Source: Balanoglossus misakiensis
Lineage: Eukaryota > Animalia > Hemichordata
DNA length: 64,000 nt
Direction of reading: 5' to 3'
Assembly: GCA_040954595.2 (NCBI GenBank)
Contig: CM082596.2
Location: forward strand, 4,918,181-4,982,180
In this document: one piece after another, positions 1-29,807 of the stretch
How positions within the stretch are numbered: position 1 is the stretch's first letter
How the letters are laid out: each line of letters opens with the position of its first letter
Position numbers and translations under genes: made by a program
Notes under the pieces: generated by a model
Database searches by the model: none
What the model was told of the DNA's origin: nothing
The model's input: the letters and a program-made list of their open reading frames with translations, nothing else

Positions 1-249
1 CTCGGGAAGGATTTCCTCCGAGTGTTCGTACACTTTCCTGGTGGTATTGGCGTGGATGCAGACGTGGTACCGCCGGCTGTGGACTAGATTAAGTCCTTTC
101 ACATTGACGTAGTTGTCCTGCGGGGGAACGGAAGGATTGGGAACATCTCACAAATCCACATCTACTGTGATTCAAACGAGTCAGAAGATTACAGCTCACA
201 CGCCCACACAGCATCATTCAAGAAAGTCTTTTACTCAGGTAAAATGTAT

Positions 250-295
<46 letters not shown>

Positions 296-3200: not shown

Positions 3201-6200
3201 ATGGATTACAAGGAATTCATAATTGGATGGGTGGGTTGGGAATGAATGGATGTATTGATCAATTAGTCAACCTAGGAACCAACCAACCTACAATCAATCC
3301 GTCAATCAATCAATCTAACAATCAAGGAGCAACCAATCAATTTGATAACCAGTCAATAAGTCAACCAGTTGAACAGTCCATACATTTTATCATACATGGA
3401 GAGATGAGGAAAGGGGAGGGGGAGTTGGATTAATATGTAATTCAAAAGCATGGCACTTCATTGCTGTCATAAGTTATAAGAAACTCACTTACCAACACCA
3501 TACTGGCAATTCTCGAGAGGTTCAGCATCTTCATCATCATAGAAGGCATCTTCCGCCCACGCAGCAACCAGATACTCTTTGCCGTCTTGCGATTGTAACC
3601 CGACATTTATACTTCCACTGAACGAGGGGGCTGTCACCTCCACAAAGTAAGGGCCTATCACCTACAGGGAAGAATATACCGGGGTATGTGCAACAAGATT
3701 CAATTAGTCTGTTTAATTCTCTTTTGTTCATCTGTCAATAACAATTAAGGCATATTTGACAAGGCAATTTACTAGTCAAGATTTACATGTACACTGTATA
3801 TGAAAGTGTGACGATGGAAAAGATTCTTTGAAAGCAAGTGACAACAATGGATTTAAATGACATACCTTGGTTGTTGACAGCTGTGCTCTGTTGATAGCCT
3901 TCACAACCACATAGAACTCGGTTCCCTCTGCCAGGTTAGGATGATAGGTCATGAAGTCTTGGTGTGAGTGCGTTGACGTCAATGGCAGAATGTCTGGGGC
4001 CAGTCCCGATGATGTGCTGCTCAGTCCGACTTCGTAGTCGTAAATTCCACTTTCAGCATCGTTGCCCTTCCAGCGAAGCGAAAACTGAGAAGATAAAGTG
4101 ATGGGGAATTCAGATAAGGTTGGATTCACTATTGTTGAGGTTTAAATGCATTAGTTTTATCATCTGTTGATTTCAATAAGATTTGTGTAGAGTTAGAACA
4201 TATTCGTATGTATGTATGTATGTATGTATGTATGTATGTATGTATGTATGTATGTACTCACATGGTTTTCTTTTGTATAATAGGCATCCGTTGACAGTGC
4301 AGCACTTTCGATACAGTCATCACCAGTATACCCTGACACTGTGGTCGACACTGGCCACACATCAATGTCATCAACCAGTCTTGCAATGGCCCTGAAGGAA
4401 ATACCAGAGACAAAGTTGAACAGGAATTTGTTACATATGTATCAGTTGCAGTTATTGTTTTAAAAAAAACATTGAATTCCGGTTGCTTTACCACTATATA
4501 AGTGGGCAATCTAGTTCCAATTATATAGAAAATGGCCAAAGATTACAGCTAATGAGTAATGCCCCTCCACTTAATTTGTTTCAAAGCGTTACTTCACCTG
4601 CAGTCATCAGTGGCATTCACAACCAAATTACGGTAGCCCGTCTGATCGACCATCCAAACAGTGCCGCCAACGTCCCTTATGACACCAGGTTTCACTCTCA
4701 CGTCATCAATGTCCACTTCTCGTATCGTGGGTGGCGTGACATCGATGGTAATGCCGTCCGAGCAAACAGGTTTGGATGGTTCCAGTGCCCGGTTGTAGGC
4801 AACCACGGTGCAGTAGTACGTGCCTGGTCCCGGAGCGGTCCAACTTGCGTGCGTAGATGTTGTATTAACAGCCTGTCAAATGACAAGGGGATATCGTAAA
4901 GGGAAGGGGTCGTCGCGCCGCGTGGGTGTCCCCCTTGATGAGAATATGTCCTCCCATATCAGCGCAAACCCCACTGCAGTCGCCACGACCTGCTAGGATC
5001 TTCAGTTGCTGTCATGCCCAGTCTACGCTACAGTTGGCTGCTTCGCTCATTCTAAGAATGATCTAATTTCAGGGATTTGTGGGTACATTGTAATGTTTAT
5101 AAACAAACAAATGCGGCGCGATGAGGGGGAGGGGTAATCTTAAATTGCTGAGAATACTCACAGGCATAGATGTGGGAAGATTAAACGTTCCATCATCTGC
5201 GTTAGCGCAGTAGTTACCAAATACGTAGACGTAGTAGAGAATACCACTTTCTCTGTCGAAGAACCCATCCCAGGATGCGTGAACAGCAGTGTCCTGTTGG
5301 TAGTCAAGATCGCTTTCGCCCGGCTCACTGTCATGAACTGCACCCTCATGTGGTGGACTGATATCCACTGTTACCTGGATAGACAAGCACATAAATAATG
5401 GGTTGAAGTGTGTTAACCCTTTCACCCCCAGTTCTCTCTTTAGAGGTCCAAGTTTACCATAGAAAACAATAGATTTGGACCAAACCATGGTGGTGAAAGG
5501 GTTAAATAACCTCATTGACTATTGTGACATGCTAACAAATCACACATCTAGCAAACAAATGATTTTAAAAGCAAACAGACAGGTCAGACTCAAGCACGTA
5601 AATTGAATCTATAAGACACTAATTATAATTACCTGGAATTGCTCGACTGTTTGTAACATTGCGTTGTTGGTAACGGTGAATGTGTACAAGTAGTCGTGGT
5701 CGTGGTTCCCGATGGGAATGGTCAGCTTGCTGGCATCCAGCTGAAGCGAGTAATCTCTGCTGTAACACTCATTGTCCTTGGGTATGCATCCGCAGTTTGG
5801 AGCACTACAGTCTGTCATCTGAAAGTGGCAAAACACATTTACACAAAATTAATCAAAAGCTAAAGAGATCAACGTACATAAGAAATGTTTTCATAAGATT
5901 GAAACTTATGCGAATTATGACTTACTGGGTATATATATTCAAGGAAATGCAATTTTTGTATAAAACCTTGCCAGGAATAGGATTCCTATTGGACAACTAT
6001 AGGACTCTTAAATAGAACAAGTCCGAAGATACTATTGTACAGTCCTATTGAAGTCATGTAATTGCTATAGGACTCCTATAGGATTTTGTTGTTGCAAAAC
6101 TGGAATTAAGAGGACGAGACATTTGAATCAAAATGATGCCAAAAGACTCTGCAGCTTTACACTTACATTATGTCTTCTAACAGCTATTTGACCTTCGCCG

Positions 6201-9200
6201 TGTACGACGTTGACATCGGCATAATCTGTCAATGTCCAGTGAATGTTGTGCAAACCGCTGTGATCGTCGTAAGACTCGAACACAACTCTGGAAAAATTTA
6301 AGAAGAAAACTTCATTGTTATGAAGTCGAAGCAAGATTGGAGTACAAGACATCAAAGAGGGTGTGTTGTTGTTGTTTGTTTTTGTTTTTTTGGGGGGTGA
6401 AGTTGAAATGGAAATGACATGTTTAGGGACTGGTCAGTTTTTTTGGCCGGGGGGGGGGGATTCTATTCTATTTTGTGTATATCAAAAAATGACTGCCCCC
6501 CTCCCCCCATTCAACATGGACGAGTGGATGGACCCCATCACCCAAAACAGGGTGACCTCCCTGATATATCCAACAACGCCTAGATCCCCCCCCCCGACAG
6601 AAGATACTGACCAGTCCCTTACTTACTCCATTTCGAAAAGATCCTCAGAATTGTGAACAGCCAAGCTGGTCAGTCCATGTCTGGTCAGGGAGATGTCATG
6701 CACTTCGGGAGGTGACGAATCAATGTGAAGCAGAATCTCATCCTGGTTTTTATTGCCCATCACGTCGGTGCCTCTCACCCATATCCTAATGGAATCACCG
6801 TCATTGCGCGGTATATCAAGGGTTTGTTCCTCAACCTGTGAAAAAAATAATGATACGGGGTAAAACGTGCAGTGTCAGTTCATGCATACCTAAATACACA
6901 CACACACATACAAACAGTCTATTGTCTAATTTTGACACATTGATGAATGGGTATGACTTGCAACAGATATGAATATTAATGAACATGAATATTAATGAGC
7001 ACGAATATTAATGATTTGTCTGCACTCAAAATAAAGTCAAGCTGGGCAGAACCCTGCAATGACCACATTTATAGCCCCGTTTTGTACACCAAATTTGCAG
7101 TGAACAGAAATGTGAGCTTATAAGTCTACTGAGAAAATTTAATGACAGGCCACAAACCATGATATCGTCCACATCCTGCCAGTTTCCAGGTTCAGTCGTT
7201 ATAGAACGCCCCCCTTCGTGATCTACGGCGTAGTCCACTTCAAATCTGACGATGGCGTTAATGTTCGGTATGGCTTCACGCGACCTCGTCTGCGGTGGCT
7301 GACCGGTTACTTCTTCGTAATCGGAGGTCAAAGGTGGCGAATGATCTTCGATTTCGTTGAGAATCTTGTGTTGTCTGTGGAACTGGTTGTAAAAACGACC
7401 TGGCCAATGTGCATGTACCTGGTGGAGAAAATGATTGAGTAATTTGTATGAATAGTAGTGGATCCATGGGGGGGGGGGCTGTTTTGAAATTGGGAGGGGG
7501 GGGGTCACCCACTTCTCTATTTTCAATGGGGGGGGTCAGTCACTTTTTGATATCCACAACATTAGAATCCACTAACCCACTCCCCCCCCTCTCCGGCAGA
7601 AGAAACTGACAAGTCCCTTAAAACAATTACAAGTCTTACAGTAATGAACTGGCATACAATTACATAGTTTGATGAGTGTTTAAGAAAATTACAGGGATTT
7701 ATTCACAAAAGTAACACTGACTCTACCTTAGGTCCATTATTGCTGTTATCTTGTAGATCAGTTTGCCAGAGATGACTAGTATTAACTGCAGCAGAATCCA
7801 CCCATAACGGGTACTGACCAGTAGGGTCAACATCAACCACGTTGACGTTATCAAATATGAGGAATCGTCGGGCGCGTATGTGGTTACCAGCTACGTCATC
7901 AGCGGTCAACAGTACGCAATAATCACCTGTGAGAGAGTCATATATAAGTTTTTCCATGGGGAAATTAGCATTTTGAAATTAGCATATCGACCCACCATAC
8001 AGTTGCGTTTCCACAGCTACACACATACAATTACATACTGTACATACATATATGTATACATACATACACACACACACAATGTGACATACAGACAGACAGA
8101 CCAGGGATCATATTTCTCACACGAGTTGGGGATTTTTGTCCCAAACTCGCCTACAGCTCAAGTGCGTTAGTGAAAGAACGTTTTTCATCCAATCAGCGCT
8201 CGCGTTATATACAGGTTTCGATTCTGTGAGAGTGTGGGATCAACACTCTGATCCCACGTGATCTCATTCTATTTTGCACATACTCATTTATGGCATCGGA
8301 TATTCGCAAATATTGGTAAAATGCACTGAAAAATCACCCAAAAGTTTCTAGATATTCACAATGTTTGACAAAGAATGATAAAACGCTGGCTTGTATACTA
8401 CATGTGCATCTTACTTACCCGGTTCTGTTAAATTCATCGTGAACGAAGACCCAGTGGCATTGTCCTTTAAGATTGGAGAGATAGACCTGTACCCCAAAAG
8501 GTCACCATAAGGTTGCATCTTGTAAACTTCCAACTCATATTGCTTAATGCCTGACAAGTTATCCGACCAACCGGACCAGCGCAACGTTATTTCTCCCTGT
8601 AAAGGAGACACAAAGTTTAGCTGTTTGTTGCAATGGCGCGCGTTTGACAATGTGCAGAGAGCGCCCTCAACCGTCTTGTAGGACGATCGATAAATCAGTA
8701 ATCTGAGGTGTGTACGTTGCAATTCCTGTCACATCGTGTTTTCGAGGAGGCTTTATTTGAAACATGTTCAGAGGAAATGGCGTTTTGTTGGTTTTTCTGA
8801 GAAGGAGGAAATCTCGTGCGTACTGCAAACTCGACTTAATTTCCTCACAAAATCTCGCACGTATACACATACATGCATGTACATTTTCGTCGATTTTCAA
8901 ATAACATATTACCCCTTTATTTCTTGGTTTCGTTCAATCCCACTTGGTTTTATTAACGGCACATATACACCTTTTTTACTTACATTTTTGGTAATAGCTG
9001 GACCTCTGTCCAGCATATTATCAGAACAGCTTCCAGTTACAGAACAATGTTCTGGCGGTTCGTAGTCCAACGTAAAATCAGAAGTGTGAGAGATCGTTTG
9101 GCCCCGGTAGTATTGCTTGGGATCGACCGTGTACCCGGATGAAGCGTCGTAGTTTTTGATTTCCACATATCCACCATTCACGGCTTCGACTGTGACGTTG

Positions 9201-10969
9201 AATCTGAAAGAGGGGTGAAACATATGCTCTGTAGACATCGTAAAATAGTAACCTGAGTGTACAGTAAATTCCAGTGTTGTGTTTATCCAAACTGTAAAAT
9301 ATTCGAAAACGAATTTTGATCTTCAAGTTTCATGTCTTTCTCGAACATAAAAATATCAAATTCGGGGATGACGAAACGACACGTTGCAATTAAATCAAAG
9401 TCCCTTATATTTGTTAATGGAAAATGCTCTAAAAGTTTACAGTATCCGTTGACTGATAAAAAATGAGATGTACAAAACTTAATGATCGGCCCCGTGTATA
9501 AAATCCTATCTAAGAACCTTGGCGGTCGGCCCCGTGTATAAAATCCTATGTAAGAACCTTGGCGGTCGGCCACGTGTATAAAATCATACTTAAACACACC
9601 TGTCGCCATGTTGGAAGGAAATGCTGAAGTCGTCGTGTACTTCACAATCATGCAGGGCTTGGTGGGGATTGTCTTGATTATATCCAATTGAACAAGTTGC
9701 ACTGCCAGTGTGGACATCACTTCCGCCTGGAACGAATAATTTCGTCGTTATTGGGAGACAAATTCTTGTCCCGAGTGCGAATCCGATTCCCATAAAAGCG
9801 TGGAATATCACAATATCATTAACAGGTACATCTTTGAACTGAGAACTATAACGGCAAAATATGATCAAGGCATGTGTTTAAACAATGGAAAGCTATTAAA
9901 ATCGCACACTCATAGAAGAAGTCTTAGCAAATCTGTGAATTTATTCCATCCAGGCGCATATCCGGTGCAATAACGATAACACAAAGTTGATCAAAGTTGG
10001 TCTCCAGTCTTTGGAAATGCAGAAGATAGTTAGGCACCTAAATGTGTTGTACAGCATTTATTTAAATGATGATCGGTGTTTGATTTTGCTTAATTTTGTT
10101 TATAAGAACACACCTCTACGAACTCTCCAGTTGAAAGATGCAGCAACGACGCCCACTTTGAAATCGTTGATGTAATACGGCTGCGGATAGCTGGCCGCGT
10201 TCGGACCGACGTATTGGGTGTCCCACTCGACCAGAATACGGTCTGGTACTAGATTGGTATACACGGTCTGAGGCGCCGTCACGTGGTCATCGCAGTCTGC
10301 CTCCACTCGGGTGTCTCCCGCCGTACGTATCAGCTTGGTTATGCAGTAATTCATGGTCGGGGTCGTAGTCACTGGATAAACGATTCAAAATAAATGAGTA
10401 CGGATCATCCAGTAAGCTTTCAGCTCAACTAATATCGTTCTTTTAAAACTTAAACACAGATTTTTAGTAGTTTGTTATAATATTCACAGTCTTCAAACAT
10501 AGATTCCGAAATAAACTTGTCTTTGCTACCAACTATCTTCACTCCACCATCATTATTTAAAATAAATCATTTTCGCAATAAGACACTCGGTTGATATCAC
10601 TTACTCTGCATACAGTTATCACCACTGAATCCTGGCGCACAAGTACACGATGAGGGCGTACTAGGACAGGTGCCTGGATAACAATATTTACTGTCATGTC
10701 GCCAGGAGCATATCTCTGTTCAGAAAAAAAAATGACAAGAAAAAATACGTTATAGCAAAAAAATTTATGTCAAAATACGATATCGAAACTCACCCGAAAT
10801 GACGGTAAGAGTTAGTACTTACGTTGACAGACTCTGTTTGGATAACTGCCGGAATCTATCAGCTCATAGGCTTTGATGTCTCCGCCTCGGTCATAGCTAC
10901 ATCGATGGCAGGCGTGGTTAGTGGCAGACGTACAGTGGAGTTGTTGGCAATTATCGATGGTCGTACATG
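1..10969 (-). CDS. Constant region (about 25 exons, 3' end beyond the window) of a large extracellular protein: N-terminal Cys-rich/EGF-like exons followed by many FN3/Ig-like repeats
   Basis: Chain of GT-AG exons. C1 10969-10823 reads (P)CTTIDNCQQLHCTSATNHACHRCSYDRGGDIKAYELIDSGSYPNRVCQ. C2 10715-10605 reads QICSWRHDSKYCYPGTCPSTPSSCTCAPGFSGDNCMQ. Later exons carry recurring motifs such as 'IDVTPP', 'VDISPP', 'WDGFFDRESGILYY', 'WKGNDAESGIYDYEVG', 'WSGWSDNLSGIKQY'. The frame is still open at position 1. C1 has an acceptor but no signal peptide of its own. Confidence 0.8.
250..450. repeat. (CAT)n/(CAC)n trinucleotide microsatellite, intronic
   Basis: Long runs of catcatcat/caccaccac. Confidence 0.95.
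4207..4256. repeat. (GTAT)n microsatellite
   Basis: About 12 tandem GTAT units. Confidence 0.95.
5417..5501. mobile_element. About 85-bp piggyBac-like MITE
   Basis: TTAA|CCCTTTCACC...GGTGAAAGGG|TTAA: terminal inverted repeats with TTAA flanks; second copy at 40867-40949. Confidence 0.75.
6426..6618. mobile_element. PIF/Harbinger-like MITE (TTA target-site duplication)
   Basis: TTA|GGGACTGGTCAGT...ACTGACCAGTCCC|TTA; related inverted, truncated copy at about 7469-7617. Confidence 0.75.
7469..7617. mobile_element. Truncated, inverted relative of the 6426-6618 MITE
   Basis: Ends ACTGACAAGTCCC|TTA; internal sequence is the reverse complement of the core of the 6426-6618 element. Confidence 0.55.
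9486..9585. repeat. 40-bp minisatellite, about 2.5 copies, intronic
   Basis: tcggccccgtgtataaaatcctat(c/g)taagaaccttggcgg repeated at 9486, 9526, 9566. Confidence 0.9.
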
Positions 10970-13900
10970 CTGTAACAAACGAAAAATATGTGTTACAAAT
11001 CGCATTGGGTCGATTTGTGTGACTATTTCAGATTGCCCGGTCAGTTTCCCGGTCGTACGGTTGCTAAACGAGTCCGACACGACCAAAAGTTTGCAACCGA
11101 CCTAAAAAAAATTCTCCCGAACAGCGCTGTCAGAATTTGTTTAGCGAAAGTGTGTTAGCCACGCCCCGATCATCGCTAGTTGAAGCCAATCGTGAAAGAC
11201 GAGGTGACCATCAGTCAACCAGCTTCGGTGAAACACTGGTCCGATTGTTCCGTAAAGTGTGTTCGAACGCAATCCATTACCAAAATAACGGCAAATCGTT
11301 TTGTGTTTTTTTTTGCTACGGGGAAAGTCGTCGCAATTTCACACTCGTTTGGGTGCCAGTCTACATAGATTATTTGTGCTACGTCTCTGAAGGCCATACT
11401 CTTATCGTCGCTATTGCCACGGCCTTTCCTCAGTCTTAACCTTGATGCGCGTTAAAATTCAATAGGTTTGCTTCGACACAGAACGATTGTATACGTATGG
11501 GTTCGATTTATGTGGGCCAAAAACAAGTTCTTTGTCGGTGTGTGGGCCATTTTCTCCAAAATTGCACCAAGGTGTTGAATAAAACTGGCTGCGCCATACT
11601 TCCACCTTATATATAATCTAAGGAATTTGTGTTTTAACAGGCGTCTGTCCAGTCTTATTACTAGGTTCCGGGTCACCTCATACACAAACCGCATATTCGG
11701 TTTGTCGGAAAATTCTCGTGACACATCGACAAATATAACATTTCATATAATTTAGTGGCCTCAATCAATCTGTCACCGAGGTCGTGAGTACGATACAAAG
11801 CCTGGGTAAACATCGTCCGATCCCCGGTGAAAAGTTGATAAAACAAGGACATCAAAGTCCAGTGTAAATACAAAATATTAATAACATTTCGCCGAAAAGT
11901 TGAAAATTAACAAAAGACACCTGTGATTCATCAGCCCTTGCAACGCCACAACAAATGAAATCCGTCATCGTTAGGGTACTAAAAATGTATTTGGATCATG
12001 TAAACGATTATTCTGCGTGACTTCGGTACGGCATATGCAATCGTCCACAGAAACATGCCCGGACTAAGTTCCGTGCAAGGTCTCGTCCTTTTGTGGAGTG
12101 ATATTGGTTTGAAGGGTGCATGGTTTGTGTGACAAGACGTTGGGGATTTTGGGGATTGGTCGTTTAAATTCACCTACAAATTGATTCGATAATTCAGACC
12201 ATTAAAACGATTCTCGCCTTCCCGGCGGATGTTACTCCAAACCCCGGATGAAGCTGACAGGAAGAAAGTCTCATCAGTCTTACAAGGAAGTAGAACTGAA
12301 AAATCGAGATAAATGCCGAGAGGAGGGAAAATCCCCGAGTCTCTTACGTAAGAGGCACAATAAAACCCTCATAACTTGGGAGTCGCTTTACAAATAGACC
12401 CCACGACGGTCCGTTCGGTTGCCAGATCCGTTTTTTTTTAGCGGTGTGTATCGACGTGAAACCGACCAGCCTGTTTTAAGTTGTTTTGACAGTTGTCGAC
12501 CTGTGCCACTGGCAGATTCGTGTCGCTGCACACTCAATTACGACTGAGAAGATGCATGATTTACGTGCAAGTACCAATAGGGCAAGCTGTACAGCAATTG
12601 CCTACGATGTCAATGAAAAGTAGACGGCGTCCATCTCTGGTCGTCTACGCCCAATTACTTTCTACTGACTCATTATGTGGTAGAAAAGGAAATGCAATAT
12701 TTCTCTCATGTTCTGGCATATAACCTGTATAGTAGTGGTGGTCAGGTAGCCGCACATATACATAATAAAAACGGCCATTTCGCTAACTCTACACACATAC
12801 ATGTATACGTGCACATGTGTAGGGCTGTCCGCACTTTTACCTGTGCCGTAGTTCACATACACAAACAACTGAAATCCGGGTCACCAGTAACATTGACAGA
12901 TGCCATTGCCTATTCAACAGCCGTCTCACACCAGGATTCTAGCTACTATAAAATAGGCCAAAGTCCTCGTAAAATGTGAACCCAGCGCTTTGCGTTATTT
13001 GATTGTCCTCCGAGAGAATGGATTGAAAAAGGGGTAACGTGCAAATTCCAAGGGCGTACAGGATGTCAACCGAGACGGCAACTATTAAAGTGACATGACA
13101 CATTGTTTGTGCAGCTCCGTTGGATCGTGTTTGCTTCGAGACTCATAGCTCAAGTGCTCCCAACTTTTAAGTGGTAAAGTCGCTTACTTTTGACGTTGTT
13201 TTCGTTTATTTTCAGTTACTTTTGTAGATTACGCGTTTTCTCAATGGAGGATATTAAATTTTCGAATTCAGTGACCCCAGGCAAAGTTTTTACAGGTACC
13301 GCACCTGAGCCAGAGTTTATGGCTTTGTACAGGACACAACACCAACATATCAAGACATGACGTAAGGCCAGTTGCCCTATCAGTTTGTTCGTATCGAAAC
13401 CGCGGCAGTCATTCCTCCAACGAAGCTCAGCTCTACGTGCTTTCAACATTTGTGTGGTAGACGTATTTTCAACAACGACGTCGCTGCAGAATGTCGTAAA
13501 ACGAGTTCTATTACGCAACGGGGCAATCAAATGTGACCTAAAAATAAATTGTCAACGTTTCAGCTCTCAGACAAGCCCGGTGGCTGTCTGGCTTGTACGG
13601 TCGTTTTCTCGATTGTTCTTTCGAGTTGAAAGTTCTCACCGGGTATGATCAGCATACATTTCCATCTACACGTAAGATAACTTTCAAGGTCACACTGCTA
13701 TTTGCAATGCATTAATCAAACAGGAAATTAATGCATCACAAATTTGCTTAGTTACATAGTTGTACCTGTTTCCTGGTAAAAAGAAATGGATGATGAATCA
13801 GCACATACAGGGAAAACTTATCACGCGCACCACACACTGTAGTTTCAAAACGGGGGGGGGGGGTTGACAGATAAAGTGTCTCATAATGAAAATGGTAGAT

Positions 13901-15014
13901 GTGGCCGTTATGTGTTCTCTGCTGTCAGTCCGATCTGAATTCTTTCAAGTTACAATATTAAAACTTGCAATACGATACACGTCGGTGTATTTCGATACCC
14001 CGCGTGAACTCTCACCCGGTGCATTTGATAGTGGTTCTAATTTGAAAGCGGTCGTGACGATCTTAAAAAAAAAACTTCAAACCCTGTCCTTATCACGGTT
14101 TACGTGACTTGTAAAGATAACAACAGACATGACATATGTCCAATGGACTTGCTACTGTGTGATAATGTATTAGCTTTTTACTGTGTGTTCCGCGTGAGAT
14201 TACCGTAAATCCTGTTCCACATACCTATAGATATTTTTTGCGCGCCGCGGGCGAGGTTTATATTCTGATCCCATAGCGAGGTGCAAAGCCAACGCAAACA
14301 GGCCTGCACGCGTCGTTGCCGTGGAGATGTTTGCGGTTTAGGGCGATGATGCATACAGGTTTTACGTAGGGACCTTGAAGTTTTTAATAACGCGTCAAGG
14401 TTAACACGACAAATATTTTCAAATAAAAGAATCCAACGTTATTATATGCCCCGGTAATACAAAAATGTCCATAGCATGTCCGAGTTAGCTAAATGGAATC
14501 TCCATTTCAATTTGCTGATTTGTAAGCGACTGGTAATCACTGCCTTTCCAATCCCCGAAACAACGGAATTGGGGAGTAAATAATCTGGGAGAGACCGCGT
14601 CTTGATTATTTGTGTTTATTCTACTTGTTTGAAAGCCTGCGATTCTGTGAGAAACTTTCATACCAGTGAAAAATATCGAGTTGGCCATCATGGTGTCGCT
14701 ATGCGGAAGTAACTTGGGGGAAAAGATGGTTCGCGATGTCTTCAAGAAGCTGAACAAAAGAGCAACGAATCAATACATGATAGTATTATGGTGCCCCTTT
14801 TTAGGAGCGTTCAATTTATGCTGGTAACTTTTGTTGACGAGGCATTTGCACTATTGGAGCAGCAGTTTCCAGTTGACTGAGTCAGTAAAAGTTTGCATTT
14901 ACTTTATAAGCCTTTGGGCAACTAATTGTCCGACTTTTATGCGATTCGAAGACTTCAAACGTAACGCCGATTTGAACCTGGGAGGGGGTGTGGGGTGGGG
15001 TGTGCAAAACTTAC

Positions 15015-15360
15015 GTTTATCACAGCATGTGTCCCACCATTCGTCCACGCAGCTACAGGAAGTTGATAGAGGCGAGCCATGACCGTGACACCCAGGCACG
15101 TTGCAAGACTGTGTCTCGCTCAGATGGTAAGGGCAAGACCCTCCACAGCTCGCCCCTGAGGTGATGTACCGCGTCCGCGTCTGCGTGCCGTCGGTTCCGC
15201 ACGGCGCCGAACACCCCGTCCAGCCGGACCACCCGCTGACGCTGCAGTTCACGGGGCCGCACGCTCGTCGACGGCGACGGCGTCGCCAGCCGTCGGCGGG
15301 CGTCGCCACAAACAAAAGAATTGACAGGCCCACTACCAGAGTCTTGCAGTAGATCTTCAT
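15015..15360 (-). CDS. Variable first exon V1: signal peptide + polybasic + TSP1 + EGF-like
   Basis: MKIYCKTLVVGLSILLFVATPADG-WRRRRRRR-ACGPVNCSVSGWSGWTGCSAPCG..QTRTR..CGGSC..CNVPGC..WWDTCCDK; 346 nt, ends in phase-1 donor C|GTAAGT. Confidence 0.85.
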
Positions 15361-18022
15361 GTCCGGGCCCTGACGAATGTGTGTGCCACTTTTCACCGGG
15401 AAGAAAACGTCGGTTTACCGCCGAGATTTCGCTGATGCCGACGGCGGAATTGCACTTCACAATATTAGTCGTGTGTCCTCGCTTTTCGCGTCGATCTTCA
15501 CTTAGATTTCACCAGCGGGTCTCCGACTCGACACACACGAGCGGTGCCACCGAAAACGATCCTACCACTGACTCAATGTAACACAAGTACACAAGTTGCT
15601 TATTACTCTTGCGCATGCGTTTATTTACTCATCAACTTCCTCGGCATAGTGGAACACCCACCCCACAGCAATCTCGTGCAGTGATTCTGCGTGTTATGGT
15701 TTATAGTGGCGTAATTTCATAGTTATGACATCATTCAACACTTTGCCATACACACGTTTGACATTTGGGTTGAATTTTAATACCCGAACGAATGCGTCTC
15801 TTTAAAATTTAACACAGTGCGCGATGCATTCCAGCAAGAAACTGCGCGGCCATGGGAACAGTTGATGTACTGGCCAGACGTGCGGGCTGGACGGGGTTTC
15901 CCCCTAATCGTCACTGGCAAACAGTATCATGCTACCCCTATTGTCACTACGTCCGACGACCTTTGTTCGGCGTTCATAGAATGGGTTAGTCGATATAATG
16001 AATATTAACAAGTTCGGGGAAAAGGGAAAGTCACTGTTGTTCAATACCACGAACGTGTTGGTCGATTTAAATTACCCACGCACATAAAGTTGTTCAAGTT
16101 TGGTTGTAATGTGGTGCGCATATACACTTGCGCTTTGCGCCTTTAAGGATCACACAATTCCATTTTTTTCGTACGGCGTTATTGTGTCTATATCTGTTTT
16201 TTTAGGTCAACTTGAACGTGAAAGTAAGCTATAAATCGTAGACACTTGCTGGTTCAAGTTTAAAACGATCCCTCCTACGCCTCTTGCCGTTCCACCAAAT
16301 GAAGAGCGTGTGACGCCGTAAAATTTAAACTGAACGACAATTTGCGTTACTGTCGAGTCAACAACCATGTTGATGTTTTTTTTTCTGGAGAGTTACACCT
16401 TCGTCCGCCAAGGTGAGGCCGAGCCAACGACCCGTGGGAGCGGGCGATGGGATATATTCATCATCTGCCACATGCGGTGGACAGGCGCGATCGACAGCGA
16501 GGCAGGCTACACTAACCTAAAAACCTAGTTTGGATGGAAAAAATAATGATCTTTGGCCGCATTTGGGGACACATTCCCTGTTGTTCGTTTACATTATAAA
16601 TTCACACAACAGTGAACACAATAGCCTGAACTGTTTTGGCTCCAATTCAACTCTTCAGGTCTTCGGGCTCTATTCAGGTCTTTCACCGACTGTGGATATG
16701 CGCTGTAACGTTGTTACTAAATGTTTGCCTTTCTACTGCACCGTTCCCTGAACCCGCCTAAAACCAATGCAATATAAAACTCAGCCCTTCGCTGAGTCAC
16801 ACTGGTGCTTGAAGTTGACCTTCCTGGTGAGAATGACCGATGGAGCCAGTCTCGTATGAAAGGAGCTATGATCTTGACTCTCTTGTTGGCCGATCTCGTA
16901 GAGCCCCCCGGCCAACAGCGGACAATACCACGAAAACAACACCACCAAACAATATTTACGAGCGGGTCCTTGGGTTCAGATGACACATGTGTTTGTCTGC
17001 GTGCGGTCACCTTGACACGGTTGAGATTTGCATGATCTGCAAACTCTTTAAAACCCCGTCCTCGTACCTATATGCAGTGCGGAGAAACTGCTAGGAAATG
17101 TTGACGGCATTACCGCCGTACGGGGAAAGGGCTTACGCTATCACGAGGAACCGGGGAATGCCAGCGTGTGCTCAATGCTATTCGGGCGACGAAAGTACAT
17201 GTACAGTAATTCCTAAAATTAAAATTTCTAGCGAAAGTGTAAATGACATTTTGCGGTATACCGCGGTACGGATTCGTCTTAATCCTATTCCAGCTAGCAA
17301 TACGTGCATGTTGGGTGAAAACAGACTTTCACTAGTAATATGATAGGCTGGCCTTCCTGCATCCGCCAAGAAAAGATTAGTTTTCAACCTACTATTAGTA
17401 CGAATAATTGTGTTGCTGTATGTTAGTAGCTAGTGGTCACTTCAATTGGCCGAGGGCGCTCTAAACGGGATCAGTCAGAAACGCGCAAGTCGAGTTAACA
17501 TTTCCTGTATAGTATCATGGAAGTTGAACTTTCCTGACACGATAGACCAAATAAAAGCAAATTTTGAAGAAAAACTCGACACAAAAACAGACATTTCCTT
17601 GCTTGTTTTTATATCGAGTCGGTGATACAACCCTTTTGGTTTCTTTCTGCGTAATGAAACCGTGCCAAAGTCCTCACTCAGTGGGAATCATGTTGGCCGC
17701 AGATATTTTTAAGTACTCGAGCAAAATGGGTAGGTATAACCATCGCTAACCGTGACTATACTACGATGAGACGGTTACTTTTAGAGGCAACACCGACTCC
17801 GCGCTCTCTTTGTCAAGTTGTTGTCGCCGGTCAAGGATAAAGAAGAGCCCCGTTGTCAGTTTTCAATACAGTCACACAATAAAACTTCACAAATGGCCCA
17901 TGGACGGGCAATGACACGTACTGGCAATATAAAACATCCATTGAACCAATATTCTAAGTTAATGAAACTCAAACGTATGCTCCATCTTCGCCTTATATAC
18001 AGCATCGTCTGCATCTACTCAC

Positions 18023-18368
18023 GTTTATCACAGCACGTATCCCACCACTCGTCCACGCAGCTACACGAAGTTGGCAGAGGCGAGCCGTGCCCGTTGCATC
18101 CGGGCACGTTGCACGCCTGCGTCTCGCTGAAGTGGTACGAGCAGGACCCGCCGCAACTCTCCGTCACCGTCTTGTACCGCGTTCTCGTCTGCCTGCCGTC
18201 GGTTCCGCACGGCGCCGTGCACGCCGACCAGGCCGTCCAGGCGCTGACTTGGCAGTGGACCGGGCCGCAGCCTCCGCCTCCCCGCCGTCGTCGCCATCCG
18301 TCGCACTGCACGGCGCACCACAGAAGTAAAAGTACCATCAAGGGCAGTTTCGTCGCCAGGGATGCCAT
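18023..18368 (-). CDS. Variable first exon V2: signal peptide + polybasic + TSP1 + EGF-like
   Basis: MASLATKLPLMVLLLLWCAVQCDG-WRRRR..CQVSAWTAWSACTAPCG..WWDTCCDK; 346 nt, phase-1 donor C|GTGAGT. Confidence 0.85.
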
Positions 18369-20193
18369 TCTCTCGCTTATCCCTAACTGCAAGGGCCCCT
18401 TAAATGATCTAACTGCTTTCCTTCAAGAAATCCGATGAATATCCCCGACTTGATTAACTGCCAGGCATCCTGTGCGCGAACACAGGCAACCGAACGGCGT
18501 TGACCAAGACACTGGACGAAGACCAAGGCCGACAACGCCAAAAGTAGCTATATATTGCGCATGGCAAGGATTCAAATAACCTAGAAACGTCACAATGAAT
18601 TCCCGTGAATGAAATCTGATCATAAAATACATCACGCGAAAAAAACATCACAGCCGCGACAGTGCGGTTATCACAAGCGTAACACCGAGGGCAGAGTTGA
18701 CCGAGAGGTTACAGTATATTGTCATGTTTATGTAAGTCTCGATAAAGAGTTGGCCATAAACGATGAATCTAATCCACGACACATTTTAAGGTTATTGACC
18801 TCAAATATCTTCAATTTTTCTCACACATTCTTGGCATACTACCCATCAAAGGTTCGGTCATAGTCAATAGGGGTGGGGCAGGTGGTTTTTGGCGATCCTT
18901 CTCAAACTCCGCCGGCCGCGCATAAAATCGTGCCATCCGTGGTGTTTCCATAATTATTAGCAGTGCCCCTCCCCCGATATATCTATAGACCCTTACAGAG
19001 GTCTGAATAAAAAAATAGATGCTGCACACCAACGAAAATGCCAAGATGAAAGGTCGTATAAGGATCTCGGATATCTCGGGGAACACCGATTGCAGAGACG
19101 GTCCTCGTACTGGCGGTAGTCATGGAGGTCGCCCTCGTACGGTAGGACCGATGTTTTATTTCAGTAGTGACCATCCACAGCAACAGCAAGTCTAGACTTG
19201 AAGCGAAAACGAAGGCAGTCATGTGTATTGGAGAATAAGCCGCAAGGACATTTTAACAAACCAGTACATAAATGCATGATTGGCGATTTAAAAAATCTCA
19301 AATTCGCGTCGTCGCCCCATTTCTGGGGGATAAGCCAAGAACAGGAACAATTGTTTTTTTTGTTTGCCTTACCCAAGCATGAGTAGGATGATATGGTTCA
19401 AAAGAAAGCCTCTGCCTTTGGGAATCTAACTCTTCACTCATTGTAACGCTTGTCATAGAATAGGTTACCTCAGTCTTGACATTGCCCCGAGAGAGTAACT
19501 AATCATTTCAACCATAAAGAGCAGTCTGTGCGAAGGAATGCGGAAACTCTGGCAAATCTCGTTCCTAAACATCCGCGTTTTTTGTTATAGAATAGATGTA
19601 TCAAAACAGAGATACTAGTAGTACGGAACATTCTGGCTACCTCAAAAATAACTTCTTGTTAGGTCATAAATTTATATCTTTGTAGTTAACATATTAAACT
19701 CATTCAACATTTTTCACGATGCAGAGCGTGCGGGGTAACCACTCTCCTGAGTCGGTGGAACATGGTGGAGGAATCCGCTAAAGTTTCGACCGCTTGTCCG
19801 AAGCCCTTTTGACGCGTTCCGGAAACAGTGTGGGCAAAACCCAGGGGGAGATTGCAAGGAGCAATTCAGATTGGTGCGTGCGATATTAGGGGAAACACAA
19901 AGTGTGATAGCGAAAGCAAAAATTGTCTTCCAGTATTATGTACACTGTTCTCAATGTTGATACACACATACATTTTATGTTTATGAAACGGTACGTCGAA
20001 CATAGGGTACTTATGACTTTTGGCGCTCTTTTGATAAACGGTTGAAACAGAAACGGAAAGTATCCCACACGCATGTTGAAGGCTAGCTGTGCTACCGTTC
20101 GGGTGATGATGTGCTGATTTCCCGAGGGAATCGGTGTTTCATCACCACGCACGGTACAGCTGCGTTTCCACGGCAAGCTGGAGGCATACTTAC

Positions 20194-20533
20194 GTTGATC
20201 ACAACACGTATCCCACCAGACCTCCACGCAGGTACAGTACGACGACTGAGGGGTGCCGTGGCCGTGGCAACCGGGGTTGTTGCAAGACCGCGAGTCAGAC
20301 AGACCGGGGCAGCCTGCACCACCACAGCTTGCGTGCTGGGTGACGTATCTGGTCCTGCTCTGTGTACCGGTGGTGCCGCACGGAACGGAGCACGAAGACC
20401 AGGCAGACCAGGCGCTTACTGTGCAGTGTCTAGTGTCGCACCGCCTCCTGCGACGCCTTCCCCACCATCCCTCGGCGTCGTCCGCAACCAGTGCGCACAC
20501 GACCAGAGCGAAAACAATCCATCGCAAAGACAT
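20194..20533 (-). CDS. Variable first exon V3: signal peptide + polybasic + TSP1 + EGF-like
   Basis: MSLRWIVFALVVCALVADDAEG-WWGRRRRRR-CDTRHCTVSAWSAWSSCSVPCG..WWDTCCDQ; 340 nt, phase-1 donor C|GTAAGT. Confidence 0.85.
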
Positions 20534-20550
20534 CGCTCTTCTTTCAATTA

Positions 20551-21294
20551 GGGAGCATTCGTTTTTGACAGGGAGGGGGGGGGGCGGTGGAATTTGAGTC
20601 GCCGACTAAATGTAAAAGGCAACCCCCCCTGGAAATTACTTTTCTAAAATGTGACCCCCCCCCCCCCCCCGAAAAAAAAAAGTTTATCCACCGGATTAAA
20701 CTTATCATGGACACAGCGCTCCCATGAAAAGAATTTGAAACCGATGTTTCCTCTCATCAGTGGGTAGTAAAACTGAACATTGTTTTTTTTTTTTTAGTAC
20801 ATTGTATTTGTATTCTGTGTTGGGAGACATTGTAAACCGAGAATTGAAGGGGGTGGGTTTGGAGAAGAAAATTTTATAAAATACAGAGCTCAAAGCTGCA
20901 TTTTAATGAACCCAGCAAAAGCAAATTAACGTCGCCGCTTAAAGTTATCATGGGGTGGGGGCAAGTCCCCTGACCTGGGACACTAGATAAACCAGTCAAT
21001 GATTGTAAGGTGTTGATGAATGGAGGGGGTGGGTGTGGGGGTTAGGAGGGGGTGGGTGTGGGGTGTCCCCCTCCCACATTAGAAAATTTTGTAAAATAAA
21101 GGACGCGAAACTGCATTTTTGTGGACTCAAAATAAATATTTAGCCGTCAAAGTTTTCAAGTCCCCCCCCTTTCAGTCCCTATATAATAATCCCTTGATTA
21201 TAAAATTTGTCCCCCCCTAAAAACTGCTTTGTAAAAGTAAACCCCCCCCTGATTTCCACCGGCCCCCCCCTCCCTGTAAAAAACGAATGCTCCC
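20551..21294. mobile_element. 744-bp PIF/Harbinger-like non-autonomous element just upstream of the V3 start codon
   Basis: TIR GGGAGCATTCGTTTTT(G/T)ACAGGGAGGGGGGG; TTA duplicated at 20548-20550 and 21295-21297; the empty site (caattagacacagaacc) is visible in paralog V4. Confidence 0.9.
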
Positions 21295-21640
21295 TTAGAC
21301 ACAGAACCTAACTTCTGATGACGGCGGTATTTGACGGGGCGTCTGCCTGCTTGCCTGACTTGCTGTGCGCAGACGAGTGTCAGGGTAGGTTTTTACATAT
21401 ACGTTTTATGCATAAACGGGTATTCTCAATGGCCTGGGGATTCAAATTCCCGAGAAAAACGACTGACGTCATTCTGGTTTCCGGGGTAATATAGGGGAAA
21501 AGCCCGATCACTTACACGCGCGTCTGCATTAACCCTTTAGGGACATTTCAGAAGGAAAATATAATATTATCTTTTTGTCTTCCATGTGGGCTTTCATAGC
21601 TTAACGTTTTATTGACGGGTATTCAGGTACATGTACTTAC

Positions 21641-21992
21641 GTTTATCACAACATGTATCCCACCATGTAGCAGTACAGTCACATGAGGACGAAAGGGGAG
21701 AACCGTGGCCATGGCAACCGGGATTGTTGCAAGACTGCGAGTCAGAAAGACCAGGGCAGCCTGAGCCGCCACAGATTGGGTCCACGGTGACGTATCTGGT
21801 CCTGCTCTGTCTGCCGCTTGTGCCACACGGAACGGAGCACGACGACCAGCCGGACCAGGCGCTCACCTGGCAGTGCCTAGGGCCGCACGGCGCTGGACTG
21901 CGCCTTCTGCGACGCCTTCCCCACCACCCTTCGGCGTCGTCCGCAATCAGTGCGCACACGACCAGGATGAAAACAATCCATCGAAAAGACAT
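21641..21992 (-). CDS. Variable first exon V4: signal peptide + polybasic + TSP1 + EGF-like
   Basis: MSFRWIVFILVVCALIADDAEG-WWGRRRRRR..CQVSAWSGWSSCSVPCG..WWDTCCDK; 352 nt, phase-1 donor C|GTAAGT. Confidence 0.85.
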
Positions 21993-22108
21993 CGCTCTTC
22001 TTTCAATTAGACACAGAACCTAACTTCTGATGACAGCGATATTTGACGGGGTTCTTGCCTGCCCGGCTGTGCGCAGATGAGTGTCAGGGTATAGGTATTG
22101 ACACACAG

Positions 22109-22137
22109 TTTTATACACGTACGGGTATTTTTATTGG
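22109..22137 (-). promoter_or_regulatory. Candidate core promoter of V4 (TATAAAA plus upstream CCAAT)
   Basis: Minus strand TATAAAA at 22115-22109 and CCAAT at 22137-22133, about 120 bp upstream of the ATG; the homologous position upstream of V3 reads CATAAAA. Confidence 0.4.
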
Positions 22138-22885
22138 CCCCTTCCCTGCAAATCAGGTCCCTAGGAATTTGGTAAATTTATCAATATTTGGATACCCTCA
22201 CGGCAAGTAAAGCTTTCTTTGATTGGTCATTGATTGATTGGTTGAAACATTTGGTGTATATATATGTGAAGGACGCTGCATTCGATATCCCAGTTCTTTT
22301 TACAGTCTTTCCGGGTTCGTGGTCCCCGTTTCTATATGGCCATTGTATCTGCAGACTGTCGCCAAACAAACTAACACTTGCCGTGGCAACAGAAACTTTC
22401 AAGTTTCCGGGTTGAATGTCTGTTTTAAACACTCATTATTGTTGTTAGCAACGCGCATGATCTACACCTGCATAAGAAAGTGCACGTGTGTTGTTGGCCC
22501 CTATTGAGACAGTGGAAACCTTCTAGGCCTATATGCGGCGGGCTCTATCCGGAAAGGTAGTAACAGCTGGCTTATGTGGTTAAACGTATTCGCCTGTCTA
22601 AAAGTATACCTACTTTACAGCTCATAACAAATTTCCACATAATAAGACTTCAAGACATCATACAAATATAATGGCAAAACATTACTCACCTAATGTTGCA
22701 TCACCTATTACGAAAATAGGAAAAAAAAGGTATTAGATATCACATGTTACAGGGACAACAAACTGCATTTCTGACATTATTATTTGCATCATATGTCCTC
22801 TTGCAAACTGTTTATATTTTCATTATGCTAATTGAAAAGTTTCCATTTCCCATTAGTGAAGTATTACATACTGTACAGAACTTAC

Positions 22886-23158
22886 AATGGTAGCGAACTT
22901 CTAGGTATTTCTCCGTCCCTCGGCAAGGATCCCCAAAGACGCCGTTGGACGCGCTGAGGGAACACTGTCGGTTGCCATTGCACGCCGCACTGACGACTGT
23001 TAGACTCGAAGACGCGCCACAGTTGGTGACTGAAGAATGTCCACACGTCGACGAGCTCGTCCGACCGTAGTTGGCCCATGCTATTCGTATGGCTTCGTGG
23101 GTTTGGCAAGTGATAGTGAGGTGTGGCGAACCGTGTTCACATGCGATAGAAGTCTGCG
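22886..23158 (-). CDS. SUEL-type (rhamnose/galactose-binding) lectin domain exon, not shown in the ORF track
   Basis: Acceptor ttttttcaatcacacag, then (A)QTSIACEHGSPHLTITCQTHEAIRIAWANYGRTSSSTCGHSSVTNCGASSSLTVVSAACNGNRQCSLSASNGVFGDPCRGTEKYLEVRYH, then T|GTAAGT. Contains the SUEL hallmarks ANYGR and DPCxGTxKYL. 273 nt, phase 1-1. Confidence 0.9.
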
Positions 23159-23685
23159 CTGTGTGATTGAAAAAAAAATATTACATGTCAGTCATTTGTG
23201 CCACACTTGCTGTATTACAGTATTTTTGTACCGTACTCGAAATAAAACCAGACAAACGCACGAGTGAGTGGTACACGTTTATTCTCCAGTGGCCCTATGT
23301 TCCATGGTTCAACGACGCGGATTGGCCGTTTGTGGACCAAATACCTTAGATGCACGAACCGCTTCGGTTTGCATCCAGACCCCTTGTTCCACAAGCATGC
23401 CTGCATACATAACAAGGAAGGGACGTGGTTTGGGGATTCCCCCTTCTTCGCTTGTCTTACACGATCGATCTCAAAGAGCGTCATTATGAGTGGATTCGAA
23501 GGTCATTTAATTGTCACGTAAATTGTCTTGACGCGTAACTTTAGAATGTAACGTCATCGACTAGGATGGCCTACTTCGTTCGCATTTCACTCCTCTCCAC
23601 GATCAGTCTGAATTTTTAATGTGTGCATTGTATGTTTGGAATTTTTTAAGTTTTTGACATGACATAAAGCAATAAATACTTGTAC

Positions 23686-23877
23686 TGTTGAAACCTATTC
23701 TTACTTCATATAAGCGTACATGAACCAGGAAAGTAGGCGAAAGCCGGATTTTCAGTGACTTTCAAATCCGGCAAACCTGATTGTTGAAACCTATTCTTAG
23801 TTCATATAAGCGTACATGAACCAGGAAATTAGGCTAAAGCCGGATTTTCAGTGACTTTCAAATCCGGCAAACCTGAT
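23686..23877. repeat. 96-bp tandem duplication (2 near-identical copies)
   Basis: tgttgaaacctattctta...ggcaaacctgat at 23686 and 23782. Confidence 0.9.
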
Positions 23878-24272
23878 TAGGTTACTCAAGAATAAGTGTA
23901 TATCAGAAACCCCTGATACAATAATAACTGTCTGAAAGTGTTTTCAGACTATCAAAAAGCAGTGTTATCCTCTTGCGTTACTATATTTTTCCTCGCTCTA
24001 TTTGCGCTGTGGTATTGCGACCGCTGAAATGTGTGTCGACTGGCAGATGACTTCAATGGGAAAGGAGCAAATCTCCAAAGGTTTCAGTGACGTTATGATC
24101 TTTTGAGTTCATCTTAAGTTCGTCAAGTTGGGACACTTCCGCGTGTGTGTGCCGCGCCAGTTACGTAACTACTGTCCTGTGTCGTTCGTAAATGCTATGT
24201 GATATAAATATCACGGGTATCCTCCTTGTAATAGGGGATGATAGAAAATAAACCTGTCATTAATAACTATAC

Positions 24273-24366
24273 CTGGTCCTGGAACAAAGTAGGTTGATCC
24301 GTGAGTCTCGCAAACCACCCAAGTGGAGATAATTGCAAGAAGGGCCGTCCCAAATGATCGTGACAT
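24273..24366 (-). CDS. Signal-peptide (leader) exon L2
   Basis: MSRSFGTALLAIISTWVVCETHGSTYFVPGP+G|GTATAG; 94 nt, phase 1; paralog of L1. Confidence 0.6.
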
Positions 24367-24705
24367 TCGGAGTACTTTCGCCGCGGACTGCTCAAGATAG
24401 TGTAGCGTGGTACATGTATTGTAGGCCTACTGCATATACACATGCGCACAAGTCGCCTTCACTAACGCCTACGTACGCTGACGGAATCACAGTCCCTACG
24501 CAGGGAATGTCCCAAAGCTTTTAGCCAGAAAGTAGAGATGCGCAGTACTGATACGGCAAACACATACGCTTTGAAAGTGACCGCACGAGGAATCTTCTGA
24601 AGAACAGTAATGTGGCAATGTGAGTAAATGCACCGAAAACTAAAAAGGTGCAAATCTTCATCAGAACAAGGGTTGATAAAAACTAAACCCGTTATTGACA
24701 ATTAC

Positions 24706-24799
24706 CTGACCCTCGAACAACGTATGTGGATCCATGAGTCTGGAAAACCATCCAGGTGGAGGCAACTGCAAGAACGACGGTCCCAAATAATCGCGACAT
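24706..24799 (-). CDS. Signal-peptide (leader) exon L1
   Basis: MSRLFGTVVLAVASTWMVFQTHGSTYVVRGS+G|GTAATT; 94 nt, phase 1; paralog of L2. Confidence 0.6.
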
Positions 24800-28357: not shown

Positions 28358-29807
28358 ATCACCGAAATTCTGGCATTAAAAATATATCGAAATTTTAAAG
28401 CATTTACCGATGCGCAAGCATCCACCCGCACGCGTTCTTTGCACTGGTCAAGTTGCCAACCTGCGCTTGACGACGCATCCAGAGGAACCGAGAGAGAACG
28501 CGTCGTCGCCCTGGGAACTGCTGCGACTGTGACGTCACAAACGTTCTTCGGCACTCGTCGTGCGTAGTCGTGACGAATGGCCGACGACAATGCAGTTATT
28601 CAGTGAAGGATATTCACCCAGAGACGACCTCCAGCCAAGTAATGTTTTATATATCTTTATTTAAAGCGGGGATTTCTCTCCTGGCAAACTGTTGTACAGC
28701 ATCTAGACCAACCTACACCCAGATATTTCTACATGCAGCAAGCATTTGAATAATAAAAAATATTACTATTACAACAAAATATCAAATAAACAATTTCCAT
28801 GCACCTACATAGAAAGAGACAACAGATTTCTGTTGCAAAAAAGGAAATTGGGCATATTAATTATCATCTCCTTAAAGGAAATTTTTCTAAAGTGTAAACA
28901 GACTTTCATCAATTTGTAGAACCAATGTCCTGTAATCTTTCATCAAAGACAATAACATTACGATCAGCTTTACACAAGATTTATATAAATAGTCACAGAG
29001 TTTATCCTAGTGTAACTTGAATCATTCCGTCCTTTTAATAGTTCAGTTACGAACTGTTTTTATAATCACTGCAATATTAACCTGAAAATGTTGCAAAGTA
29101 ACAGCCTAAACACTGAAGACATAACTTTCCTTTTAGATCAACCAGCAATTTGTAATCTACAATATTTACATTCTTTTTCAGATTATCAAACAATGTTAAA
29201 TAGTTTACAAAATTGATTGTCCATACATTTTCAGTGAATCTGACATGTATTGATCAGGTGGGTGGCCATCACATGACACACACATGATACACTCATGCTC
29301 AGAGCATGACATCTGAAAACTCCACACAAGACACACACACAATATGATTAAGGTAGTATGCACTTTAGGAGGAGGATAATTTTTTTGGTATGGTTATAAA
29401 ATAACACTTATTTTATTAACTTACTATATAATTCTCAGAAATAACTGTATCACTTTCATTGTCGCTTTCAAGACAATTCTTGTCTTTCAGTTGCTTTAAA
29501 ATTCTTTACAAGACTTCAAAACAAAGAAAAGTGCAAAATAATTCCATGTGGTTCTTTAAAAGGGCCAATGGTGCTAACTACGGTAGCTGCCAAAAACAAA
29601 TCTAATTGTACAAAACTCTGAAAGAAAATGTCTGTCCGAGTATAAAACAGCTTGTATATATATATACAATGGATTCAAGATAAATTTGATGTACAGGTAT
29701 GTATGTGTGTACACTGGGCTCACAGCTCAGATAAAACCTGTGTGTATAGATTGTGCTATGCTCCACTTTGTTGATGTTGTTTCGGGGGTCTCTCTTGAAT
29801 GAACGTC

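Follow-up and report, generated by a model that had tools for sequence, protein, structure and literature searches.

The locus described here raises the question of whether one long protein can receive different N-terminal tips through the choice of its first exon. The window, a 64-kb stretch of the genome of the hemichordate Balanoglossus misakiensis (contig CM082596.2, positions 4,918,181 to 4,982,180; all coordinates below are window positions), contains four candidate first exons, V1 to V4, and a series of body exons beginning with C1, all of them on the minus strand. The anatomy of these exons, the selection acting on them and the isoforms of their homologues indicate that V1 to V4 are each very likely spliced to C1. 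The best explanation, which we consider probable, is that they are alternative first exons of one body of 25 or more exons, encoding a likely secreted FN3/Ig-chain protein of about 3,400 residues whose tips may be interchangeable docking modules.

All four V exons have their own ATG and a signal-like segment, and V2 to V4 are 56 to 66% identical to V1. In each, a Trp-Arg run and then a TSP1 domain come after a hydrophobic signal-peptide-like leader, and the end is EGF-like; the start region of V4 carries WWGRRRRRR between the signal peptide and TSP1. Pfam TSP_1 scored above the cutoff in 4 of 4 exons (the matched entries being TSP_1 and TSP1_spondin), and the head contains an even count of 12 cysteines. 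The motif CCD(K/Q) plus donor occurs exactly four times in the window, always on the minus strand. The donors are phase 1 in every case (GTAAGT three times, GTGAGT once) and scored 8.4 to 8.9 against a matrix derived from the donors of this gene, for which the leave-one-out range was 1.5 to 12.7. When 64 homologue heads were searched against the window, matches were obtained at V1 to V4 and nowhere else. The ATGs, last exon bases and phase-1 donors of the V exons and the coordinates of C1 all agree with an earlier, sequence-only reading of this DNA, which had also divided the exons into two subfamilies. V3 and V4 are indeed a supported pair (99/95); V1 and V2 are mutually closest by identity (66%) without forming a supported clade. 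V3 and V4 clustered with three Ptychodera heads at 94/97, just below the starred threshold, and V1 and V2 took no supported position. On this grouping, the two types of head may be older than the separation of the species.

C1 is in frame with all four V exons, and its acceptor scored 7.1. Joined to the 25 constant exons, V1 gave 1702 codons with zero stops, running off the window edge. This translation matched Glandiceps XP_077997649 (P0156) at 70% over 1693 residues and Ptychodera flava P0154 at 79% over 1271 residues; C2 to C25 are colinear with residues ~164 to 1715 of the 3386 residues of the Glandiceps protein, and the window gene nested with Ptychodera and Glandiceps at 96/95. The traits of the family are present in the window gene, namely the Cys-rich C1, the SWRxDS EGF-like module, the chain of beta-sandwich domains with DxTPP spacing and the colinear exons. 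A tblastn search with full-length homologues found no body exon among the V exons or in the interval from V1 to C1, and a splice-site scan over the same intervals returned three short acceptor-donor candidates only, none with homology. The claim that the V exons share one body and have no private downstream exons was thus borne out by the tblastn search and by the 25 shared exons that follow V1.

Head switching was found in the annotated isoforms of three homologous loci. The Ptychodera isoforms XP_070570805 and XP_070570806 (named X1 and X2 in UniRef) share a letter-identical body of 288 residues, whereas their heads are 69% identical. Isoforms X1 and X2 of Glandiceps talaboti LOC144450798 have heads that are 89% identical on a letter-identical 3273-residue body, and the six isoforms of LOC144860568 from an amphioxus hybrid (Branchiostoma) carry five heads, 14 to 74% identical, on an identical 3264-residue body. 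At all three loci, the switch occurs at the residue just before C1. This junction residue is Pro or Ala, as expected where a phase-1 intron divides the codon. The LOC144860568 heads comprise two of the Arg-run/TSP1-like type, two with a propeptide, a Gla-like and an EGF module, and one without a Pfam match; the Gla-like label refers to amphioxus heads that fall below the Pfam cutoff (E 0.025 for X3; no match for X2). According to a genome paper that describes the NCBI pipeline, alternative variants were retained only with full support from a single long alignment or from the RNA-seq of one sample (PMC5737279). Across the family, near-identical bodies bear different head classes, Gla-like versus TSP1 (98/96) and EMI-like versus TSP1 (99/97). 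Annotation picks one head per gene, and almost identical bodies bear different heads in databases. In the amphioxus protein P0158, residues ~50 to 226 form a head domain of about 175 residues without a Pfam match; in P0171, the unmatched ~175-residue domain sits after a TSP1 head, perhaps a fusion of two alternative cassettes that arose in annotation.

All four V exons are under purifying selection and are kept functional. The pairwise ratio of nonsynonymous to synonymous substitution rates (dN/dS) was 0.15 to 0.27 in four of the six V pairs, the other two being saturated at synonymous sites, and Fisher tests gave p values of 2e-6 for V3/V4 and 9e-8 for V1/V2. Neutral evolution of the V exons was simulated without indels, survival being defined as retention of the start, the frame, the donor and at least 11 of the 12 cysteines. 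At 0.25 substitutions/site, 2, 5 and 4 survivors per 20,000 remained for V2, V3 and V4, respectively, and at 0.43 substitutions/site there were zero. The intactness of V2 to V4 is beyond chance because neutrality preserves so few copies. The donor was kept in 4 of 4 exons despite synonymous divergence (dS) ranging from 0.5 to saturation, and the tails read through past it, of 38, 2, at least 100 and 10 residues, are unconserved and mutually unrelated. Therefore, what selection maintains in each V exon appears to be its splicing to a downstream exon. The architecture proposed earlier, variable first exons before a constant body, is supported by this purifying selection together with the isoforms that switch at the C1 seam in three other species.

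A number of observations count against alternative first exons. Alternative heads were found in three of six RefSeq loci with labelled isoforms; they are absent from LOC109472312, LOC144911633 and LOC110461352 and from the GenBank pairs Hypp2286 and Hypp6913. The isoform evidence consists of database gene models, and the statement on the pipeline (PMC5737279) comes from a 2017 buffalo annotation. The short homologue P0122 has a membrane segment, P0196, a shorter family member, carries a protein kinase domain, and our searches found no functional data for any family member. In the window itself, the inferred leader of V3 contains 12 ATGs, versus 0 for V4, and V3 may be weakened by these ATGs and by a miniature inverted-repeat transposable element (MITE)-like insertion; alternatively, the MITE may be spliced out or polymorphic. 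The TATA-like sites lie at uneven distances (-345 for V1, -186 for V2, -123 for V4), and a comparison of exact words yielded no 9-mer shared by the upstream regions of all four exons. Two acceptor-like sites, scoring 5.8 and 6.0, lie 18 and 52 nucleotides upstream of the V2 ATG. V4 has an in-frame stop and an AATAAA 27 nucleotides past its donor, which could give a short stand-alone peptide.

Some of these points would suit a gene that starts with a single untranslated exon common to all forms and takes only one V exon at a time as its second exon, the choice being made by splicing and not by promoters. The acceptor-like sites of V2, a further one inside the MITE upstream of V3 (score 5.6) and the lack of a promoter motif common to the four upstream regions are in line with such an arrangement. 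However, the 400 nucleotides upstream of V1 and of V4 contain no good acceptor (best scores 1.9 and 3.1; leave-one-out median, ~8.7), the V4 TATAAAA stands in a block conserved with V3, and another gene lies directly upstream. In addition, complementary 9- to 11-mers between the V introns and the intron preceding C1 were at chance level, with exact pairing scored. A shared first exon is highly improbable, and a separate promoter for each V exon is likely, because good acceptors are lacking upstream of V1 and V4 and a TATA-like site stands at -123 of V4. Another possibility is that only V1 joins the body and that V2 to V4 are either single-exon genes that terminate at intronic poly(A) sites and encode small secreted peptides with a TSP1 domain, or leftovers of partial duplication. 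The stop and AATAAA of V4, the 2-residue read-through of V2 and the even cysteine count speak for it, as do heads found on other bodies (EGF repeats in L001/P0340) and alone (Glandiceps P0137). Strong donors nevertheless persist in all four exons at these levels of divergence while the tails do not, dead copies would lose intactness according to the neutral simulation, and homologue isoforms put several heads on one body. We regard this explanation as very improbable.

Splicing could also be as in the preferred reading, with diversity for recognition as its purpose, the immune or self/non-self role suggested by the sequence-only reading. One point in favor of this role is that TSP1, Gla, Sushi and EGF modules characterize the proteins of complement and clotting. 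Eleven mature columns have at least three states among V1 to V4, four of them within the stretch 66 to 70, and the layout parallels that of Pcdh and of sDscam (PMC4835542). In contrast, the dN/dS values are low (from four sequences, too few for site-level selection), the repertoires are small, with four variants here and 2 to 5 in homologues, and the long homologues have no membrane anchor, so that a cell-identity code is improbable. Given the constraint on the V exons, the four variants and the lack of a transmembrane segment in the long homologues, a recognition role is unsupported and unlikely. A further alternative concerns the SUEL-lectin unit upstream of V4, which could serve as an additional head cassette, so that a form with a lectin tip would exist and the starts would number up to six. 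The unit lies on the same strand with two duplicated signal-peptide exons, its last internal donor, that of its 15-nt exon, is a strong phase-1 site (score 9.4) in frame with C1, and amphioxus uses unrelated domains as heads. However, the unit closes with a private terminal exon that carries a stop, an AATAAA lies at 22135, and SUEL was matched in 0 of the 64 homologue heads. This makes a lectin head improbable, and the unit is probably a separate gene.

With V1 to V4 as alternative first exons, transcription would start before one V exon, and the donor of that exon would be joined to C1, the V exons downstream of it being skipped. One of four tips of ~115 residues would thereby be placed on the same stalk. 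The separate starts would set tissue and stage, and the choice of head would decide the place and the substrate on which this one stalk is deposited. To judge from its homologues, the protein is probably secreted without a membrane anchor; the 3' half of the gene is outside the window. None of the eight long homologues has a transmembrane segment, with no hydrophobic 19-mer above 1.41. We tentatively suggest that the V tips act as interchangeable docking modules, at somewhat less than even probability. This role is favored because the heads of the family are of surface-, lipid- or glycan-binding types and because the V exons are constrained rather than diversifying. TSP1/Arg-run, Gla-like, Sushi, PLAT and EMI modules are all of a surface-binding type.

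By its sequence, the window gene is a member of an unnamed family of giant FN3/Ig-chain proteins, whose long homologues have 3,270 to 3,490 residues and weak FN3/Ig-like Pfam matches. Among the members are Glandiceps LOC144450798, Saccoglossus LOC102806247 and Branchiostoma LOC144860568, and the family extends to other proteins of amphioxus, to molluscs and an annelid, and to the sponge Sycon. Nearly all family records examined are labelled "uncharacterized." No description of the locus or the family was found in the literature, supplements, where proteome lists may name members, lying outside the search, and no paper was found to cite six locus ids of the family. A search for representatives returned 278 proteins at E values up to 1e-30, some of which are unrelated multi-TSP1 proteins. 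Multi-TSP1 proteins also dominated a broader protein search, of whose matches (at least 120) four were taken further. The C1-C2 module was present in 45 of the 142 representatives examined, and the heads on these proteins are of TSP1, EMI, Gla-like/EGF, Sushi, dermatopontin and PLAT types. Annotated homologues carry one to five heads, compared with the four V exons here. The module from C1 to the first Ig domain also begins the shorter membrane-type proteins P0196, P0122 and P0292. The C1 socket is common to secreted and receptor-like members.

In AlphaFold models of two homologues, an EGF-like module comes after a cysteine-rich one and is followed by beta-sandwich domains; the head has a predicted local distance difference test score (pLDDT) under 50 in the 968-residue model and is partly predicted in the 409-residue model. 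Fold searches returned generic Ig/FN3 sandwiches only (best Z 8.9, root-mean-square deviation [rmsd] 4.4, 127 residues aligned), with tandem FN3/MG chains at TM scores of 0.1 to 0.2. Matches to RhoGDI/UNC119 folds (rmsd 8 to 10) were rejected as a functional lead. A sequence search of the PDB with an alignment gave 0 matches. In a metagenome scan, 157 pattern matches led to one locus, with the head on another body, and the Glandiceps head-only model P0137 has 152 residues. L001:77-1777 (P0340) is an intron-less, transcript-like contig in which the same signal-Arg-TSP1 head, 65% to V1, stands on EGF repeats and a stop; the head is a mobile module that other bodies carry as well.

Table 1. Coordinates, strand and main characters of features in the 64-kb window
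Feature	Position	Strand	Description
V1, candidate first exon nearest the body	15015..15360	-	ATG 15360; 115 codons + 1 nt; donor GTAAGT
V2, candidate first exon	18023..18368	-	ATG 18368; 115 codons + 1 nt; donor GTGAGT
V3, candidate first exon	20194..20533	-	ATG 20533; 113 codons + 1 nt; donor GTAAGT
V4, candidate first exon	21641..21992	-	ATG 21992; 117 codons + 1 nt; donor GTAAGT
C1, first shared exon	10823..10969	-	147 nt; phase 1/1; cysteine-rich module; seam of head switching in homologue isoforms
C2-C25, constant exons	1..10715	-	EGF-like module, then Ig/FN3-like beta-sandwich domains; gene exceeds window edge
V4 upstream block	21993..22160	-	TATAAAA 123 nt before ATG; putative promoter with 5' leader; second copy upstream of V3
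V3 copy of promoter-like block	21295..21460	-	parted from V3 ATG by the MITE
MITE-like insertion	20551..21294	.	744 nt; terminal inverted repeats; TAA target duplication; ~17 nt upstream of V3 ATG
SUEL-lectin unit upstream of V4	22430..24799	-	lectin exon 23158-22886; 15-nt exon 22704-22690; last exon from 22467
Duplicated signal-peptide exons of SUEL-lectin unit	24799-24706, 24366-24273	-	94 nt each; 82% alike
Tandem caspase-domain genes	50672-51349, 57076-57993	-	Pfam Peptidase_C14; E 1e-19 and 3e-20

The block upstream of V4 is a putative promoter (Table 1). The MITE-like element, which we take to be of the PIF/Harbinger type and which the sequence-only reading had overlooked, is the sole copy with these ends in the window. 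With its duplicated signal-peptide exons, the SUEL-lectin unit is a second, smaller case of alternative first exons adjoining the V array; two head-to-tail 96-nucleotide copies, 97% alike, lie at 23686-23877. Upstream of the lectin, an EF-hand-like gene (~25860-28360) and an ankyrin-repeat-like gene (~29810-34000), both on the minus strand, were read by eye. Open reading frames with ankyrin- and FERM-like text at ~42000-48900 on the plus strand presumably resemble KRIT1. Both caspase-domain genes read ILSRG at the SHG position and have no QACxG-like motif; active caspases have SHG. The two tandem caspase-like proteins are likely inactive, judging from these residues. Related open reading frames lie nearby at 53234-53626 and 57997-58386.

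Like the vertebrate Pcdh, UGT1 and GCNT2 genes, the window locus has tandem paralogous single first exons, each with a start codon and a signal peptide, before constant exons, and it shares with the vertebrate arrays the lineage-specific duplication of variable exons. GCNT2 and UGT2A have small numbers of variable exons, as has this locus. The window gene differs from Pcdh, UGT1 and GCNT2 in belonging to an unrelated protein family of an invertebrate deuterostome, in its likely secretion and in giving no signal of positive selection in pairwise tests. The variable part makes up most of the ectodomain in Pcdh and ~3% of the protein in the window gene. The variable exons of clustered Pcdh encode cadherin repeats and a transmembrane segment, whereas the V exons match TSP_1/TSP1_spondin, and a conserved promoter element precedes every variable exon of clustered Pcdh. 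The amphioxus homologue is unlike the vertebrate arrays in mixing heads of non-homologous domains at one locus.

Among invertebrates, the chelicerate sDscam genes join tandem N-terminal cassettes to constant exons by promoter choice (PMC4835542; PMC9258826). The window gene resembles sDscam in being an invertebrate gene with tandem N-terminal cassettes on constant exons. The sDscam cassettes are sets of two to four exons encoding Ig domains, number ~50 to 100 per genome and belong to adhesion receptors, in contrast to the four one-exon TSP1/EGF heads here; no RNA-pairing selector signal was found at the V introns with exact 9- to 11-mers. The layout is not new to invertebrates, since tandem 5' cassettes with promoters are already present in chelicerate sDscam (PMC4835542). 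Most likely, the window locus is a new small array of variable first exons of a design that is itself known from Pcdh, UGT1, GCNT2 and sDscam.

The locus adds an independent case of variable first exons, this time from invertebrate deuterostomes. It belongs to an uncharacterized family with members as distant as sponges, and the design appears at the same seam in two phyla. It is conceivable, at slightly under even chances, that C1 is the universal phase-1 socket of an ancient secreted family, into which whole binding domains have been plugged and in which several have been kept as alternative starts. The plugs would then be TSP1 here, TSP1, Gla-like/EGF and an unnamed domain in amphioxus, and possibly the neighboring lectin. 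If so, promoter choice would swap domain architecture and not sequence alone, and exon shuffling would have been kept as a regulated repertoire over more than 500 million years of deuterostome history. With a likely secreted product and, in amphioxus, unrelated domain types exchanged on one body, the case allows a connection of exon shuffling with the use of alternative promoters to be tested.

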